Below the pieces are notes generated by a model. That model made no database searches. It worked only from the letters and a program-made list of their open reading frames with translations, and was not told the origin of the DNA. Shown piece after piece: positions 46,454-59,370 of a stretch of 64,000 bases of DNA (the first letter of the stretch is position 1; every line of letters begins with the position of its first letter). The translations under genes were made by a program, and so were the position numbers. This DNA is from Escherichia coli (GTDB lineage Bacteria; Pseudomonadota; Gammaproteobacteria; Enterobacterales; Enterobacteriaceae): assembly GCF_022846255.1 (NCBI RefSeq), contig NZ_AP025682.1. One strand, written 5' to 3'.

Positions 46454-49303
46454 TTGAAATACCTTGCTTCTTTTCGTACAACCCTGAAAGCCTCGCGCTA
46501 CATGTTCAGAGCATTGGCGTTAGTGCTCTGGCTGTTGATTGCTTTTTCATCCGTTTTTTACATCGTTAATGCGTTACATCAGCGAGAATCGGAAATTCGT
46601 CAGGAATTTAATCTGAGTTCCGATCAGGCTCAGCGCTTTATTCAACGCACCTCTGATGTGATGAAAGAGCTGAAGTACATAGCTGAAAATCGCTTATCGG
46701 CAGAAAACGGTGTGCTTTCCCCGCGTGGACGAGAAACGCAGACGGATGTGCCTGCGTTTGAACCGCTGTTTGCTGACTCTGATTGTTCCGCAATGAGTAA
46801 CACCTGGCGAGGTTCTCTGGAGTCATTGGCGTGGTTTATGCGCTACTGGCGCGATAATTTTTCTGCGGCTTACGATCTAAACCGGGTATTTTTAATCGGC
46901 AGCGATAACCTCTGCATGGCTAATTTCGGTCTGCGTGATATGCCAGTGGAACGCGATACCGCGTTAAAAGCTTTGCATGAACGCATTAATAAATATCGAA
47001 ATGCACCACAAGATGATAGTGGCAGTAACCTCTACTGGATCAGCGAAGGTCCGCGCCCTGGCGTCGGGTATTTTTACGCCTTGACGCCAGTTTATCTGGC
47101 GAACCGGTTGCAGGCGCTTTTGGGTGTCGAGCAAACCATCCGGATGGAGAACTTTTTCTTACCTGGTACGTTGCCGATGGGGGTTACCATTCTTGATGAA
47201 AATGGTCATACCCTGATTTCGCTTACCGGACCAGAAAGCAAAATTAAGGGCGATCCTCGCTGGATGCAGGAACGCTCCTGGTTTGGCTATACGGAAGGGT
47301 TCCGGGAGCTGGTGCTGAAGAAAAATCTGCCACCCTCATCGCTAAGCATCGTGTATTCGGTGCCGGTTGATAAGGTGCTGGAACGCATTCGCATGTTGAT
47401 CCTTAACGCAATTTTGCTGAATGTGCTTGCCGGAGCTGCATTGTTTACTCTCGCGCGGATGTACGAGCGGCGTATTTTCATTCCGGCGGAAAGCGACGCC
47501 TTGCGACTGGAAGAACATGAGCAGTTTAATCGCAAGATTGTCGCCTCCGCGCCAGTGGGTATCTGCATTTTGCGTACCGCTGATGGCGTCAATATTTTAA
47601 GTAACGAACTGGCGCATACCTATCTCAATATGCTTACGCATGAGGATCGCCAACGGCTGACACAAATTATCTGTGGGCAGCAGGTCAATTTTGTTGATGT
47701 CCTGACCAGCAACAATACCAATCTGCAAATCAGCTTCGTCCATTCGCGCTATCGTAATGAAAACGTGGCCATTTGTGTGCTTGTGGATGTTTCTTCGCGC
47801 GTGAAGATGGAAGAGTCGTTGCAGGAGATGGCACAAGCAGCGGAACAGGCGAGTCAGTCAAAATCGATGTTCCTTGCCACCGTCAGTCATGAGCTGCGAA
47901 CGCCGCTGTATGGCATTATCGGTAACCTGGATCTGTTGCAAACCAAAGAGTTACCGAAAGGCGTCGATCGTCTGGTGACGGCAATGAACAACTCTTCCAG
48001 CCTGTTGTTGAAAATTATCAGCGATATTCTCGATTTCTCGAAGATTGAATCGGAACAGTTGAAGATCGAACCGCGTGAGTTTTCACCGCGTGAAGTGATG
48101 AACCACATCACCGCCAACTATTTACCGCTGGTGGTACGCAAGCAGTTAGGCTTGTACTGCTTTATTGAACCGGATGTGCCAGTGGCCTTAAATGGCGACC
48201 CGATGCGTTTACAGCAGGTCATCTCCAACCTGTTGAGTAACGCCATAAAATTCACCGATACCGGCTGTATAGTTTTGCATGTTCGCGCTGATGGCGATTA
48301 TCTCTCTATCCGTGTTCGCGATACCGGCGTGGGGATTCCGGCGAAAGAAGTCGTGCGCTTGTTTGATCCCTTCTTCCAGGTCGGAACGGGCGTACAGCGA
48401 AACTTCCAGGGGACCGGTCTGGGTCTGGCGATTTGTGAAAAACTGATCAGCATGATGGACGGCGATATCTCGGTAGATTCAGAACCGGGAATGGGCAGCC
48501 AGTTTACCGTGCGTATTCCGTTGTACGGCGCTCAGTACCCGCAGAAAAAAGGCGTGGAAGGGTTGAGTGGTAAACGCTGCTGGCTGGCGGTCCGCAATGC
48601 GTCGCTCTGTCAGTTCCTGGAAACCAGTTTGCAGCGCAGCGGCATCGTCGTTACAACATACGAAGGGCAGGAACCGACTCCCGAAGATGTGTTAATCACT
48701 GACGAGGTAGTGAGCAAAAAATGGCAGGGTAGAGCGGTAGTGACCTTCTGTCGTCGCCATATTGGTATTCCGCTGGAGAAAGCGCCAGGGGAGTGGGTAC
48801 ACAGTGTGGCTGCCCCGCATGAGCTACCGGCATTGTTGGCGCGTATTTATTTGATCGAGATGGAGAGCGATGATCCTGCTAACGCTCTGCCGTCGACGGA
48901 CAAAGCGGTCAGCGATAACGACGATATGATGATTCTGGTCGTGGATGATCATCCGATTAACCGGCGTCTTCTGGCAGATCAGTTGGGATCGTTGGGCTAT
49001 CAATGTAAAACCGCGAATGATGGCGTCGATGCGCTTAATGTACTTAGCAAGAATCATATTGATATCGTGCTTAGCGACGTCAACATGCCAAATATGGATG
49101 GTTACCGCTTGACGCAACGCATTCGTCAGTTGGGACTGACGTTGCCGGTTATCGGAGTAACTGCTAATGCGTTGGCTGAAGAGAAGCAGCGGTGTCTGGA
49201 GTCCGGTATGGACAGCTGCCTGTCGAAGCCGGTAACGCTGGATGTGATAAAACAGACGCTAACGGTATATGCCGAGAGGGTCAGGAAATCGCGGGATTCG
49301 TAG
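46454..49303 (+). CDS. rcsC: Hybrid sensor kinase RcsC, 949 aa (TTG start) or 933 aa from ATG 46502
   Basis: HisKA/HATPase plus C-terminal receiver; the ORF-track start is TTG. Confidence 0.9.
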   Translation: MKYLASFRTTLKASRYMFRALALVLWLLIAFSSVFYIVNALHQRESEIRQEFNLSSDQAQRFIQRTSDVMKELKYIAENRLSAENGVLSPRGRETQTDVPAFEPLFADSDCSAMSNTWRGSLESLAWFMRYWRDNFSAAYDLNRVFLIGSDNLCMANFGLRDMPVERDTALKALHERINKYRNAPQDDSGSNLYWISEGPRPGVGYFYALTPVYLANRLQALLGVEQTIRMENFFLPGTLPMGVTILDENGHTLISLTGPESKIKGDPRWMQERSWFGYTEGFRELVLKKNLPPSSLSIVYSVPVDKVLERIRMLILNAILLNVLAGAALFTLARMYERRIFIPAESDALRLEEHEQFNRKIVASAPVGICILRTADGVNILSNELAHTYLNMLTHEDRQRLTQIICGQQVNFVDVLTSNNTNLQISFVHSRYRNENVAICVLVDVSSRVKMEESLQEMAQAAEQASQSKSMFLATVSHELRTPLYGIIGNLDLLQTKELPKGVDRLVTAMNNSSSLLLKIISDILDFSKIESEQLKIEPREFSPREVMNHITANYLPLVVRKQLGLYCFIEPDVPVALNGDPMRLQQVISNLLSNAIKFTDTGCIVLHVRADGDYLSIRVRDTGVGIPAKEVVRLFDPFFQVGTGVQRNFQGTGLGLAICEKLISMMDGDISVDSEPGMGSQFTVRIPLYGAQYPQKKGVEGLSGKRCWLAVRNASLCQFLETSLQRSGIVVTTYEGQEPTPEDVLITDEVVSKKWQGRAVVTFCRRHIGIPLEKAPGEWVHSVAAPHELPALLARIYLIEMESDDPANALPSTDKAVSDNDDMMILVVDDHPINRRLLADQLGSLGYQCKTANDGVDALNVLSKNHIDIVLSDVNMPNMDGYRLTQRIRQLGLTLPVIGVTANALAEEKQRCLESGMDSCLSKPVTLDVIKQTLTVYAERVRKSRDS

Positions 49304-49497
49304 GACGGATAAGGCGTTTACGCCGCATCTGGCATTCAGTGCAAATGCCAGATGCGACGCTGACGTGTCTTATCTGGCCTACTTTAATGTAATCTGTTGA
49401 AATAATGGGAATCGTAGGACGGATAAGGCGTTTACGCCGCATCCGGCAATCGGTGCAAATGCCAGATAAGACACTAACGCGTCTTATCTGGCCTACA
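49304..49497. repeat. REP/BIME cluster between convergent rcsC and rcsB
   Basis: Two copies of cgtaggacggataaggcgtttacgccgcatc (about 49297 and 49412) plus inverted partners ending cttatctggcctac. Confidence 0.8.
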
Positions 49498-53153: not shown

Positions 53154-53246
53154 AAAAAAAACCGGATGCGAGGCATCCGGTTGAAATAGGGGTAAACAGA
53201 CATTCAGAAATGAATGACGGTAATAAATAAAGTTAATGATGATAGC
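53154..53246 (-). ncRNA. micF: MicF antisense sRNA (93 nt), repressor of ompF translation
   Basis: Minus strand reads GCTATCATCATTAACTTTATTTATTACCGTCATTCATTTCTGAATGTCTGTTTACCCCTATTTCAACCGGATGCCTCGCATCCGGTTTTTTTT, ending in a hairpin plus U8 terminator; divergent from ompC. Confidence 0.9.
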
Positions 53247-53401
53247 GGGAGATATTCTAGTTGCGAGTGAAGGTTTTGTTTTGACATTCAGTGCTGTCAA
53301 ATACTTAAGAATAAGTTATTGATTTTAACCTTGAATTATTATTGCTTGATGTTAGGTGCTTATTTCGCCATTCCGCAATAATCTTAAAAAGTTCCCTTAT
53401 A

Positions 53402-53580: not shown

Positions 53581-54696
53581 ATGAAAGTTAAAGTACTGTC
53601 CCTCCTGGTCCCAGCTCTGCTGGTAGCAGGCGCAGCAAACGCTGCTGAAATTTACAACAAAGACGGCAACAAATTAGATCTGTACGGTAAAGTTGACGGC
53701 CTGCACTATTTCTCCGATAACGACTCTAAAGATGGCGACAAGACCTACATGCGTCTTGGCTTCAAAGGTGAAACTCAGGTTACTGATCAACTGACCGGTT
53801 ATGGTCAGTGGGAATATCAGATTCAAGGTAACGAACCTGAAAGTGACAATAGTTCCTGGACCCGTGTGGCATTCGCTGGTCTGAAATTCCAGGACGTTGG
53901 TTCTTTTGACTATGGTCGTAACTACGGCGTTGTTTATGACGTAACATCCTGGACCGACGTGCTGCCAGAATTCGGTGGTGACACCTACAGCTCTGACAAC
54001 TTCATGCAGCAGCGTGGTAACGGCTTCGCGACCTACCGTAACACCGACTTCTTCGGTCTGGTTGATGGCCTGAACTTTGCTGTTCAGTACCAGGGTAAAA
54101 ACGGTAGCCCGTCTGGCGAAGGTATGACTGGTGTGACCAACAATGGTCGTGATGTTCTGGAACAGAACGGTGACGGCGTTGGTGGTTCTATCACTTATGA
54201 CATCGGTGAAGGCTTCAGCTTCGGTGGTGCAATCTCCAGCTCCAAACGTACCGCAGAGCAGAACAATTATGGCATCGGTAACGGCGATCGTGCAGAAACC
54301 TACACTGGTGGTCTGAAATACGACGCTAACAATGTATACCTGGCTGCTCAGTACACCCAGACTTACAACGCAACTCTGGCTGGTGATTTAGGTTGGGCGA
54401 ACAAAGCTCAGAACTTTGAAGTGGTTGCACAGTACCAGTTCGACTTCGGTCTGCGTCCTTCTGTAGCTTACCTGCAGTCCAAAGGTAAAAACCTGAATGC
54501 CAACATCGCTGGTCGTACTTACGACGACGAAGATCTGCTGAAATATGTTGATGTTGGTGCGACCTACTACTTCAACAAAAACATGTCCACCTACGTTGAC
54601 TACAAAATCAACCTGCTGGACGACAACCAGTTCACCCGCGCTGCTGGCATCAACACTGATAACATCGTAGCTCTGGGTCTGGTTTACCAGTTCTAA
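53581..54696 (+). CDS. ompC: Outer membrane porin OmpC, 371 aa (non-K-12 allele)
   Basis: Signal peptide [21 protein letters not shown]; ends LVYQF; differs from my recollection of K-12 OmpC (367 aa) in loop segments. Confidence 0.9.
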
Positions 54697-54716
54697 TCTC
54701 GATTGATATCGAACAA

Positions 54717-54737
54717 AGGGCCTGCGGGCCCTTTTTT
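54717..54737 (+). terminator. Rho-independent terminator of ompC
   Basis: agggcc-tgcg-ggccct hairpin followed by T6. Confidence 0.75.
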
Positions 54738-54807: not shown

Positions 54808-55863
54808 ATGGAAATAAGCTTTACCCGCGTGGCACTGCTGGCTGCCGCGCTCTTCTTTGTTGGTTGCGATCAAAAACCACAACCCGCCAAAACCCACGCT
54901 ACTGAAGTTACCGTTCTTGAAGGCAAAACCATGGGTACCTTCTGGCGTGCCAGCATTCCGGGCATTGACGCCAAACGCAGTGCCGAACTTAAAGAAAAGA
55001 TTCAGACCCAGCTGGACGCCGACGATCAGCTGCTTTCGACCTATAAAAAAGATTCCGCGCTGATGCGCTTTAACGACTCGCAAAGTTTGTCGCCGTGGCC
55101 AGTAAGTGAAGCGATGGCCGATATCGTCACCACCTCGCTACGCATTGGCGCGAAGACCGATGGCGCGATGGATATAACCGTCGGGCCGCTGGTGAATCTG
55201 TGGGGCTTTGGCCCGGAACAACAGCCGGTTCAAATTCCGAGCCAGGAACAGATCGATGCGATGAAAGCCAAAACCGGCTTACAGCACCTGACGGTCATTA
55301 ATCAGTCGCATCAGCAATATCTGCAAAAAAACCTGCCGGATTTATATGTCGATCTCTCCACTGTCGGCGAAGGCTATGCGGCGGATCATCTGGCACGCTT
55401 GATGGAGCAGGAAGGGATTTCCCGCTATCTGGTGTCGGTGGGCGGCGCGCTGAACAGCCGTGGCATGAACGGTGAAGGCCAGCCGTGGCGGGTAGCGATT
55501 CAAAAACCAACCGATAAAGAAAACGCGGTTCAGGCTGTGGTGGATATCAACGGTCATGGCATTAGCACCTCTGGCAGCTACCGTAACTATTACGAACTGG
55601 ACGGCAAACGTCTTTCTCATGTTATCGATCCGCAAACCGGGCGTCCTATCGAACACAATCTGGTATCCGTGACGGTGATTGCCCCGACGGCGCTGGAAGC
55701 CGATGCCTGGGATACTGGCTTAATGGTACTGGGGCCGGAGAAAGCCAAAGAGGTTGTTCGCCGGGAAGGACTGGCGGTCTACATGATCACCAAAGAGGGC
55801 GATAATTTTAAAGCCTGGATGTCGCCGCAGTTTAAAAGCTTCCTTATCAGCGAAAAAAATTAA
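54808..55863 (+). CDS. apbE: FAD:protein FMN transferase ApbE (lipoprotein), 351 aa
   Basis: Lipobox LFFVGC near the N-terminus. Confidence 0.85.
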   Translation: MEISFTRVALLAAALFFVGCDQKPQPAKTHATEVTVLEGKTMGTFWRASIPGIDAKRSAELKEKIQTQLDADDQLLSTYKKDSALMRFNDSQSLSPWPVSEAMADIVTTSLRIGAKTDGAMDITVGPLVNLWGFGPEQQPVQIPSQEQIDAMKAKTGLQHLTVINQSHQQYLQKNLPDLYVDLSTVGEGYAADHLARLMEQEGISRYLVSVGGALNSRGMNGEGQPWRVAIQKPTDKENAVQAVVDINGHGISTSGSYRNYYELDGKRLSHVIDPQTGRPIEHNLVSVTVIAPTALEADAWDTGLMVLGPEKAKEVVRREGLAVYMITKEGDNFKAWMSPQFKSFLISEKN

Positions 55864-55869
55864 AGCGCA
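55857..55869 (+). promoter_or_regulatory. Ada box of the ada-alkB promoter
   Basis: AAATTAAAGCGCA matches AAANNAAAGCGCA; overlaps the apbE stop codon. Confidence 0.7.
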
Positions 55870-55936
55870 AGATTGTTGGTTTTTGTGCGATGGTGACCGG
55901 GCAGACTAAAGGCTATCCTTAACCAGGGAGCTGATT

Positions 55937-57001
55937 ATGAAATACGCCACATGCTTAACTGACGATCAACGCTGGCAATCTGTCTTAGCCCGCGACTCGA
56001 ATGCCGACGGCGAATTCGTTTTCGCCGTGCGCACCACGGGTATCTTTTGCCGTCCGTCTTGCCGAGCCAGACATGCCTTGCGGGAAAATGTCTCCTTCTA
56101 CGCAAATGCCAGCGAGGCGCTTGCCGCTGGCTTTCGTCCCTGCAAACGTTGTCAGCCAGACAAAGCCAATCCCCTGCAACATCGCCTTGATAAAATTACC
56201 CACGCCTGCCGACTTCTGGAACAGGAAACGCCTGTAACGCTGGAAGCCTTAGCCGACCAGGTGGCGATGAGTCCATTTCATTTGCATCGGTTGTTTAAAG
56301 CGACTACCGGAATGACGCCTAAAGCCTGGCAACAGGCCTGGCGCGCTCGCCGTTTGCGCGAATTGCTGGCGAAAGGGGAGAGCGTGACTACATCTATTAT
56401 TAACGCCGGATTCCCCGACAGCAGCAGTTACTACCGCAAAGCCGACGAAACGCTGGGCATGACGGCTAAACAATTCCGTCACGGTGGCGAAAATCTGGCG
56501 GTGCGTTACGCGCTGGCTGATTGTGAGCTGGGCCGTTGCCTGGTGGCAGAAAGTGAGCGGGGGATTTGCGCGATATTACTGGGCGATGATGACGCGACAC
56601 TAATCAGCGAGTTACAGCAGATGTTTCCCGCTGCCGACAGCGCGCCTGCCGATCTGACGTTTCAGCAACATGTGCGTGAAGTGATCGCCAGCCTCAATCA
56701 ACGCGATACGCCGCTGACGTTACCGCTGGACATTCGCGGCACTGCTTTTCAGCAACAAGTCTGGCAGGCACTGCGCACGATACCTTGCGGTGAAACCGTC
56801 AGTTATCAGCAACTGGCTAACGCCATCGGCAAACCGAAAGCGGTACGGGCCGTTGCCAGCGCCTGTGCCGCCAACAAGCTGGCTATCATAATACCCTGTC
56901 ATCGGGTGGTCCGTGGTGATGGCACACTTTCCGGTTACCGCTGGGGCGTGTCGCGTAAAGCGCAACTGCTGCGCCGCGAAGCTGAGAATGAGGAGAGGTA
57001 A
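55937..57001 (+). CDS. ada: Bifunctional regulator / O6-methylguanine-DNA methyltransferase Ada, 354 aa
   Basis: N-terminal Zn Cys cluster; C-terminal PCHRV active site. Confidence 0.95.
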   Translation: MKYATCLTDDQRWQSVLARDSNADGEFVFAVRTTGIFCRPSCRARHALRENVSFYANASEALAAGFRPCKRCQPDKANPLQHRLDKITHACRLLEQETPVTLEALADQVAMSPFHLHRLFKATTGMTPKAWQQAWRARRLRELLAKGESVTTSIINAGFPDSSSYYRKADETLGMTAKQFRHGGENLAVRYALADCELGRCLVAESERGICAILLGDDDATLISELQQMFPAADSAPADLTFQQHVREVIASLNQRDTPLTLPLDIRGTAFQQQVWQALRTIPCGETVSYQQLANAIGKPKAVRAVASACAANKLAIIIPCHRVVRGDGTLSGYRWGVSRKAQLLRREAENEER

Positions 57002-57651
57002 TGTTGGATCTGTTTGCCGATGATGAACCGTGGCAAGAGCCACTGGCGGCTGGTGCGGTAATTTTACGGCGTTTTGCTTTTAACGCTGCGGAGCAACTGA
57101 TCCGCGATATTAATGATGTTGCCAGCCAGTCGCCGTTTCGCCAGATGGTCACTCCAGGCGGATATACCATGTCGGTGGCGATGACCAACTGTGGGCATCT
57201 GGGCTGGACGACCCATCGGCAAGGTTATCTCTATTCGCCCATTGATCCGCAAACAAATAAACCGTGGCCCGCCATGCCGCAGAGTTTTCATCATTTATGT
57301 CAACGTGCGGCTACGGCGGCGGGCTATCCAGATTTCCAGCCAGATGCCTGTTTGATCAACCGCTACGCTCCTGGCGCGAAACTGTCGCTGCATCAGGATA
57401 AAGACGAACCGGATCTGCGCGCGCCGATTGTTTCTGTTTCTCTGGGCTTACCCGCGATTTTTCAATTTGGCGGCCTGAAACGAAATGATCCGCTAAAACG
57501 TTTGTTGTTGGAACATGGCGATGTGGTGGTATGGGGCGGTGAATCGCGGCTGTTTTATCATGGCATTCAACCGTTGAAAGCGGGGTTTCATCCACTCACC
57601 GCCGACTGCCGCTACAACCTGACATTCCGTCAGGCAGGTAAAAAAGAATAA
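57001..57651 (+). CDS. alkB: Alkylated-DNA repair dioxygenase AlkB, 216 aa
   Basis: Start overlaps ada stop by 1 nt (TAATG). Confidence 0.95.
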   Translation: MLDLFADDEPWQEPLAAGAVILRRFAFNAAEQLIRDINDVASQSPFRQMVTPGGYTMSVAMTNCGHLGWTTHRQGYLYSPIDPQTNKPWPAMPQSFHHLCQRAATAAGYPDFQPDACLINRYAPGAKLSLHQDKDEPDLRAPIVSVSLGLPAIFQFGGLKRNDPLKRLLLEHGDVVVWGGESRLFYHGIQPLKAGFHPLTADCRYNLTFRQAGKKE

Positions 57652-57726
57652 AAATAAGAATTATTATTGCTGTGCGCACGAAGATGTTTAAACTGCGGGC
57701 TGTAATTCATTGTCCGGGTTTTCTGC

Positions 57727-59370
57727 ATGGAACTTCTTGTACTTGTCTGGCGGCAGTATCGCTGGCCATTTATCAGTGTGATGGCGCTAAGCCTCGCCAG
57801 TGCGGCATTAGGCATTGGCTTAATTGCTTTTATCAATCAGCGCCTTATCGAAACGGCGGATACCAGTCTGCTGGTGTTGCCGGAGTTTCTGGGATTATTG
57901 TTGCTGTTGATGGCAGTCACTCTCGGATCGCAACTGGCGCTCACCACTTTGGGGCATCACTTCGTTTACCAACTGCGTAGTGAATTTATCAAGCGGATTC
58001 TGGATACCCACGTCGAGCGCATTGAACAACTTGGTAGCGCTTCGTTGCTGGCGGGGTTAACCAGCGATGTGCGCAATATCACCATTGCTTTTGTGCGTCT
58101 GCCGGAACTGGTGCAGGGGATCATTCTCACTATCGGTTCCGCGGCGTATTTGTGGATGCTGTCGGGCAAAATGTTGCTGGTAACGGCTATCTGGATGGCA
58201 GTCACCATCTGGGGCGGTTTTGTGCTGGTGGCGCGGGTGTACAAACATATGGCGACCCTGCGTGAAACCGAAGATAAGCTGTACACGGATTTTCAAACCG
58301 TACTCGAAGGGCGCAAAGAGCTGACTCTGAACCGGGAACGCGCCGAGTATGTGTTTAACAACCTCTACATTCCTGATGCGCAAGAGTATCGCCATCATAT
58401 TATCCGCGCAGACACCTTCCATCTTAGTGCCGTGAACTGGTCAAACATCATGATGCTGGGCGCTATCGGCCTGGTGTTCTGGATGGCGAACAGTCTCGGT
58501 TGGGCTGATACCAACGTTGCCGCGACCTATTCGTTGACGCTGTTATTCCTGCGTACGCCGCTGCTTTCGGCAGTTGGCGCATTGCCGACGCTGCTGACGG
58601 CGCAGGTGGCGTTTAACAAGCTGAACAAATTCGCGCTCGCACCTTTCAAAGCAGAGTTTCCACGCCCGCAGGCGTTTCCCAACTGGCAAACGCTGGAGCT
58701 GCGTAACGTGACGTTTGCTTATCAGGATAACGCGTTTTCCGTTGGGCCGATTAACCTCACCATCAAACGTGGCGAACTGCTGTTTCTGATTGGTGGCAAC
58801 GGTAGCGGAAAATCGACGCTGGCGATGTTGCTGACGGGCTTGTATCAGCCACAAAGCGGCGAAATCTTGCTGGATGGCAAACCTGTCAGCGGCGAACAAC
58901 CGGAAGATTATCGCAAACTGTTTTCGGCAGTGTTTACCGATGTCTGGCTGTTTGATCAACTGCTGGGGCCGGAGGGTCAACCCGCTAACCCGCAACTGAT
59001 TGAGAAGTGGCTGGCGCAACTGAAAATGGCTCATAAGCTTGAGTTAAGCAACGGACGTATTGTTAACCTGAAGTTATCAAAAGGGCAGAAAAAACGCGTC
59101 GCGCTGTTGCTGGCGCTGGCAGAAGAACGCGATATTATCCTGCTGGATGAATGGGCGGCGGATCAGGACCCACACTTCCGTCGTGAGTTTTATCAGGTGC
59201 TGCTACCGCTGATGCAGGAGATGGGTAAAACGATTTTCGCCATCAGTCATGATGATCATTACTTTATCCACGCTGACCGCCTGCTGGAAATGCGCAACGG
59301 GCAACTTAGCGAGCTGACAGGCGAAGAGCGCGATGCTGCTTCGCGTGATGCCGTTGCCCGGACGGCATAA
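57727..59370 (+). CDS. yojI: ABC transporter (fused permease/ATPase) YojI, microcin J25 efflux, 547 aa
   Basis: Walker [10 protein letters not shown]; N-terminal transmembrane domain. Confidence 0.85.

Follow-up and report, generated by a model that had tools for sequence, protein, structure and literature searches.

The Ada operator of the ada-alkB promoter overlaps the last codon and the stop codon of apbE in an Escherichia coli chromosomal window

The 64,000-nucleotide stretch of E. coli chromosomal DNA that was analysed in this work, which we will refer to as the window, carries on its plus strand the genes ompC (53581-54696), apbE (54808-55863), ada (55937-57001), alkB (57001-57651), and yojI (57727-59370), in that order. 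This gene order is given by the list of open reading frames, and it agrees with the RefSeq annotations of strain A25, whose locus is identical, and of K-12. The identities of the ApbE, Ada, and AlkB proteins are supported by matches to NCBIfam equivalog models. The apbE gene (also named ftp), which has 351 codons and encodes an FAD:protein FMN transferase, matched NF007774 over its full length with a score of 723 bits; ada, which encodes the bifunctional regulator and O6-methylguanine-DNA methyltransferase, matched NF011964, also over its full length (745 bits), and alkB matched NF011930. The start of alkB overlaps the stop codon of ada (TAATG, 56999-57003). A scan of the alkB-yojI interval (57651-57727) revealed no terminator-like site, which is in line with the induced ada-alkB-yojI transcript that has been reported from array data. 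Elsewhere in the window, the MicF sRNA is encoded on the minus strand upstream of ompC (53154-53247), and two tandem naRNA4 (REP-type) elements are present on the plus strand at 49303-49493. A clear intrinsic terminator, consisting of AAAGGGCCTGCGGGCCCTTT followed by a T-run, is located 3' of ompC on the plus strand (54715-54734), in contrast to apbE, which lacks one.

The region covering the apbE-ada junction (55600-56100) is identical (100%) to that of strain A25 and about 94% identical to that of K-12, and it was matched in 5,421 of 5,426 complete E. coli genomes. The allele found in the window is a rare one, as only 14 of these 5,421 genomes are at least 99% identical to it, while 2,807 show only 90-95% identity. 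Its rarity suggests high diversity, or recombination, in the region adjoining ompC.

The 3' end of apbE reads ...AGC GAA AAA AAT TAA, with the stop codon TAA at 55861-55863. On the same strand lies the classical 13-mer Ada box AAATTAAAGCGCA (55857-55869), which is an exact match to the consensus AAANNAAAGCGCA (PMC6505713; PMC3788762) and is identical in K-12. The 13-mer starts at the third base of the penultimate codon (Lys, 55857), runs through the AAT and TAA codons, and ends 6 nt past the latter; the overlap of this element with the apbE stop codon, which a preliminary description of the locus had pointed out, is thus correct to the base. In the refined description of the Ada site, an A box (AAT) is separated by a 6-nt spacer from a B box (GCAA) (PMC4437013; PMC3788762), and in the definition of the Ada regulon the A box may be either AAT or ATT (PMC6505713; PMC3788762; PMC4437013). 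In the window, the A box (55858-55860) is the final codon of apbE (Asn351), and the A/T pairs that follow it (TAAA, extending the segment to 55864) are supplied by the stop codon and one further base. The spacer between the two boxes is TAAAGC, and the B box (55867-55870), which begins 4 nt after the apbE stop codon, is followed by an invariant G (55871). The ATG of ada follows the operator at a distance of 80 nt, in the same register as in K-12, and the spacer between apbE and ada measures 73 nt.

According to a review of the He 2005 structure, residues R45 and R71 of Ada make contacts to AAT and to the three A/T pairs after it, and the B box is contacted by residues F114, H115, and R118 (PMC4437013). 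Inspection of the window Ada sequence showed that all five of these residues are retained, along with the methyl-acceptor Cys38/Zn site (C38, C42, C69, and C72) and C321. The locus has the features of an Ada operator, viz. an A box, a 6-nt spacer and a B box, a placement upstream of a -35-like region, a cognate Ada protein, and conserved contact bases. From the work of Sakumi and Sekiguchi in 1989 and of Landini and Volkert in 1995, the footprint of Ada reportedly extends from about -63 to -31, with the alpha-CTD contacting an A/T-rich region.

The number of motif matches by itself provides weak and only mildly significant evidence for this site. The consensus AAANNAAAGCGCA has one match in the window when both strands are counted, compared with a mean of 0.09 in shuffled windows, and at least one match to the 13-mer was seen in 9 of 100 shuffles, which is an argument for regarding the site as a chance match without function. 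The minimal pattern AAT-N6-GCAA was also tried as a genome-scan tool and was found to be uninformative, with 7 occurrences in the window against 16.4 expected. The site is considered real because of its context, that is, its position before a full-length Ada equivalog, its identity with the K-12 site, and its invariance across genera. Since its position relative to ada is the same as in K-12, its core is invariant in about 20 genera, and its cognate regulator, with contact residues intact, is encoded directly downstream, a fortuitous match is so improbable that it can for practical purposes be set aside.

A comparison with the K-12 ada promoter showed base-for-base identity over 39 nt (55847-55885), a stretch within which the operator lies entirely. 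K-12 also shares the neighboring genes, the spacing to the ada ATG, and the overlap with the stop codon of apbE (ftp, b2214), and the sequence in K-12 has been published as the Ada box of the ada promoter (PMC6505713; PMC3788762). The element was accordingly correctly recognized in the preliminary description as the Ada box of the ada promoter. Its further statement that methylated Ada would bind on the 3' end of apbE follows from the overlap, and such binding is known for the identical K-12 sequence. The literature on that sequence is likewise the source of what is said here on the A- and B-box contacts, the induction of ada, and its basal level. The K-12 spacer differs from that of the window at three positions, viz. 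55886 (T, where K-12 has C), 55888 (C, T in K-12), and 55905 (A, C in K-12). The first two of these substitutions fall at non-conserved spacer positions. The third lies within the -10-like hexamer, where the window has CAGACT, as do most Escherichia, whereas K-12 has CAGCCT, which is less consensus-like at position 4 of the hexamer.

Other known Ada sites, including that of alkA, are built in the same way, from an AAT A box and a GCAA B box with 6 nt between them, the alkA form being AAAGCAA (PMC3788762; PMC4437013). They differ in their distance to the core promoter, and at alkA also in the mode of polymerase contact (PMC4437013). For the Salmonella typhimurium ada promoter (GAATTAAAACGCA), both Salmonella loci in our dataset read ...AAG AAT TAA AACGCAAG, which contains the published motif (PMC3788762). 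In these loci the apbE stop codon is overlapped as in the window, but AAC replaces AGC in the spacer, and ada begins after a gap of 80 nt. The Salmonella Ada protein is known to have weaker activator activity (PMC3788762).

To place the overlap in a broader context, the Ada protein was used to scan species-representative genomes, which yielded 80 loci from Enterobacteriaceae, including Escherichia, Citrobacter, Salmonella, Kluyvera, Enterobacter, Kosakonia, Klebsiella, Raoultella, and other genera. In all 80 of these loci, which are phylogenetically related so that the counts do not represent independent events, apbE is present directly upstream of ada on the same strand and its stop codon is TAA; the variable synonymous sites of the same alignment serve as an internal control. 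The gap between the two genes is 66-83 nt in 79 of the loci. The single outlier, with a gap of 227 nt, is from Citrobacter sedlakii (L024), where an insertion of about 150 nt (about 2330-2480) lies between the core of the ada promoter (Pada) and the ada Shine-Dalgarno sequence; this locus still has the overlap between operator and stop codon. The pattern A[AT]T-N6-GCAA begins 3 nt before the apbE stop codon in 79/80 loci, the exception carrying CAT. In a per-position alignment covering about 20 genera, AATTAAA (55858-55864) is invariant in 80-81 of 81 sequences and GCAAG (55867-55871) in all 81, whereas the third-codon positions just 5' of AATTAAA vary freely. Outside of Escherichia, the exact AAAGCGCA form is largely absent, and most genera carry the alkA-like AAAAAGCAA. 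In the region corresponding to 55867-55876 of the window, the B box of most genera (loci L009-L082) lies within a perfect palindrome, GCAAGATTGC; the corresponding sequence is GCAAGATTGT in Escherichia and GCAAGATTGA in locus L005. The ATTG located 3' of the B box is 90-100% conserved, and it may represent a second contact of the AraC-type domain of Ada.

The invariance of AAT-TAA-A could in principle reflect the function of the ApbE C-terminus or the context of translation termination rather than Ada binding. The terminal residue of ApbE is Asn in 73 of 74 aligned sequences, as such a constraint would require, and TAA is the commonest strong stop codon. However, the three residues that precede the terminal Asn vary freely (e.g., SEKN, SDKN, SGKN, REQN, NGAN, and GEPN, among others), and although a constraint on the protein would permit AAC, the terminal codon is AAT in 73/73 sequences and never AAC. 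At six other conserved Asn columns of apbE the proportion of AAT is 15-74%, with AAC mixed in, and only 5 of 207 conserved degenerate apbE columns show a single codon in at least 98% of the sequences. The invariance also extends past the open reading frame into GCAAG, at the exact spacing of the A and B boxes. An explanation in terms of ApbE or of termination is therefore highly improbable. The invariant AATTAAA and GCAAG, together with the exclusive use of AAT as terminal codon, indicate that the constraint acts on the DNA, where it matches the contacts made by Ada. These sequence comparisons thus point to Ada binding, and not ApbE function, as what would fix the terminal codon (AAT) and the stop codon (TAA, never TAG or TGA) of apbE, and the overlap of the operator with the apbE stop codon is ancestral to the Enterobacteriaceae.

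Downstream of the operator, the positions of the core promoter elements of ada can be proposed from conservation and from an array boundary with a resolution of 7-14 nt. The putative -35 region of Pada is GGTTTTT (55878-55884, plus strand), which lies directly 3' of the Ada site, is 86-100% conserved per position, and is separated by 17 nt from the -10-like hexamer. The latter, CAGACT (55902-55907), conforms to the pattern CA-n-A-n-T, in which the C and the A are each found in 80 of 81 sequences, the A at position 4 in 74%, and the T at position 6 again in 80/81; judged by these counts, it would keep the two bases on which a -10 element depends most. The transcription start of ada would be approximately at 55913-55920, which is 6-13 nt past the putative -10 hexamer and includes the array boundary at about 55917. 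The ada Shine-Dalgarno sequence AGGGAG is located at 55925-55930, its GGAG (55927-55930) being present in 92-96% of the sequences. A promoter-like TCTACA-17-GATAAT inside apbE (55778-55806) was also considered, but such a pattern occurs at chance frequency and it is weaker in K-12.

Based upon these observations, the most probable interpretation, to which we assign a probability of about 0.9, is that this site is the canonical and already known operator of the ada-alkB promoter of E. coli, overlapping the end of apbE. Methylated Ada would recognize the B box as well as the A box and the A/T pairs beside it. As the A box is the final Asn codon of apbE, the stop codon TAA would supply the next three A/T pairs that are contacted. 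The bound Ada would then recruit RNA polymerase to the weak core promoter, with transcription starting near 55915. The operator would lie over the end of apbE because the spacer between apbE and ada is only 73 nt. The few apbE transcripts would run across the operator, as apbE would have no terminator of its own before ada, while the induction of ada would be autonomous and read-through would be limited to a very low basal level.

A consensus scan of the window and our own scan of 83 sequences, over the interval from 30 nt upstream of the apbE stop codon to the ada ATG, detected no hairpin with a T-run in any of them, in agreement with the earlier remark that no terminator is obvious in the sequence. 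Since the operator overlaps the stop codon, the geometry leaves no room for a terminator that would separate apbE from the Ada box, and the 3' end of apbE must be located within or beyond the operator; for the same reason, all complete apbE transcripts must cross it. The 73-nt gap is G-rich (median C/G of 0.7) and hence a poor substrate for the loading of Rho. With both genes on the same strand, a short gap, and no terminator, the sequence features of apbE-ada-alkB co-transcription are present. The predicted RNA fold of 55840-55945 is not unusual in comparison to shuffled sequences (z = -0.67), and no Rfam family matched the junction, where a sub-threshold snoRNA hit scored 15.6 bits against a gathering score of 38. 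The two arms of a 12-nt inverted repeat (55840-55851 and 55930-55941, 83% complementary) lie on either side of the entire promoter, the second arm including the ada AUG, and the repeat is not conserved beyond Escherichia. It was considered as an insulating stem by which the ada start codon would be sequestered in read-through transcripts and in no others; it was rejected as a conserved mechanism, as duplexes between the upstream region and the translation initiation region (TIR) at 73 loci (median z = -0.13; window z = -0.17) were no better than those of shuffled sequences.

For any transcripts that cross the junction, some information can be derived from a published tiling array. Version-3 coordinates were used here for the MG1655 locus, and the offset between genome versions presumably amounts to about 1,978 nt, which is consistent with the array paper placing position 2309559 in the apbE/ompC spacer. 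With this offset, the array segment 2308447-2309581 on the minus strand of MG1655 would consist of apbE plus about 25 nt upstream of it and about 52-55 nt past its stop codon. The end of the segment, about 20 nt upstream of the ada ATG (about 55917 in the window), would then coincide with the proposed start of ada. The segment was scored as 'similarly expressed' (PMC6505713 supplement), its log2 signal being 10.34 in the reference and 9.98 after MNNG; the background of the array is 9.0 and the apbE signal is about 1.3 log2 units above it (PMC6505713). The segmentation compares treated with reference samples, and the induced transcript covers ada-alkB-yojI and not apbE (PMC6505713). The boundary near the ada start may hence be where induction begins rather than a 3' end. 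No entry for apbE or ada was present among the rows listed in the supplements of PMC7815308, PMC6131387, and PMC10687069 (Term-seq, SMRT-Cappable-seq, and TRS).

These data also bear upon the suggestion, made in the preliminary description, that read-through from apbE could interfere with the expression of ada. In this view, polymerases arriving from apbE would occlude Pada or displace Ada, or, conversely, Ada and polymerase at Pada would block the apbE polymerase at its stop codon and thereby lower ApbE under alkylation stress. With the operator over the stop codon and no terminator present, the geometry of the locus permits this, and the apbE signal is slightly lower after MNNG. However, this change is the one that was scored as similar expression, so that the apbE signal is in effect unchanged and the suggestion is not borne out. 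Additionally, ApbE/Ftp and Ada are both zero in every condition of an absolute proteome (Mori 2021). As ApbE/Ftp is undetected, transcription from upstream must be very weak, which makes strong interference unlikely and collisions rare. Lastly, the induction of ada at its native locus matches that of ectopic reporters, where there is no apbE transcription (PMC8643705). Considered together, interference in either direction is very unlikely. In the same proteome, AlkB is found at mass fractions of about 3e-6 to 3e-5, which is odd for the promoter-distal gene of the ada operon; its detection without Ada may be due to a detection bias or to an internal alkB promoter.

The preliminary description had also proposed that read-through across the operator could contribute to the expression of ada-alkB. 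The lack of a terminator and the apbE signal past the stop codon are in favor of read-through, which is, however, not needed for induction. A fragment covering -100 to -1 of ada is strongly induced when present on a plasmid (PMC3788762), and a Pada-CFP fusion placed at intS is activated in concert with the native regulon (PMC8643705); since both are inducible outside of the locus, apbE transcription is unnecessary for the induction of ada. In uninduced cells, Ada expressed from its native locus is present at about one molecule per cell with Poisson statistics, 20-30% of the cells having no Ada, and AlkB is absent from most cells (PMC8643705). Translated read-through can therefore be at most of that order. 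Nonetheless, a small amount of read-through could constitute a non-trivial share of so tiny a basal flux.

This leads to an alternative form of coupling, in which read-through from a weak apbE promoter, translated from the ada ribosome-binding site, would account for an appreciable part of the MMS-independent basal Ada (and AlkB) by which the positive-feedback loop is primed. Every complete apbE transcript crosses the operator, no hairpin with a T-run is present in any of the 83 sequences, the gap is poorly suited for Rho, and the array segment of apbE seems to continue past its stop codon. Furthermore, with both ApbE/Ftp and Ada below proteomic detection, a tiny flux from upstream is compatible with about one Ada per cell, and models have treated basal Ada only as a constant rate that is assumed to come from Pada. 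Against this, a transcript spanning the junction has not been reported, apbE being absent among the rows listed in the supplements noted above, our literature search found no discussion of apbE read-through into ada, and the array boundary may just mark the onset of differential expression. The accepted source of basal Ada is the weak firing of Pada, either unactivated or dependent on RpoS (PMC4437013). We therefore regard such a contribution as rather unlikely. A stronger version, in which the basal level of about one Ada per cell would derive largely from rare apbE read-through instead of unactivated Pada, and the conserved adjacency of apbE and ada would act as a 'pilot light' for the feedback loop, is offered as a similarly tentative proposal that we consider doubtful.

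The reading of the site as the known Ada operator places it within a common bacterial arrangement, in which a promoter lies in the 3' end of an upstream gene on the same strand that has no terminator, transcripts of the upstream gene must pass through the downstream promoter, and bases shared between operator and coding sequence are under a dual constraint. In comparison to this general arrangement, only the last codon and the stop codon are shared here, so that the cost to the ApbE protein is negligible. As the ada promoter is a textbook case of activation by a chemically modified regulator, finding it again represents annotation and not discovery. The position of the operator on the last codon and stop codon of apbE nevertheless provides a clean example of a regulatory site that constrains synonymous and stop-codon usage. 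In regard to the cell, the basal level of one Ada molecule drives the heterogeneity among cells in alkylation repair; as apbE lacks a terminator, this basal Ada may come from Pada or from apbE. Its stochastic, damage-independent production determines how long and how variable the delay of the adaptive response is, and with it the resulting heterogeneity in mutation rate.
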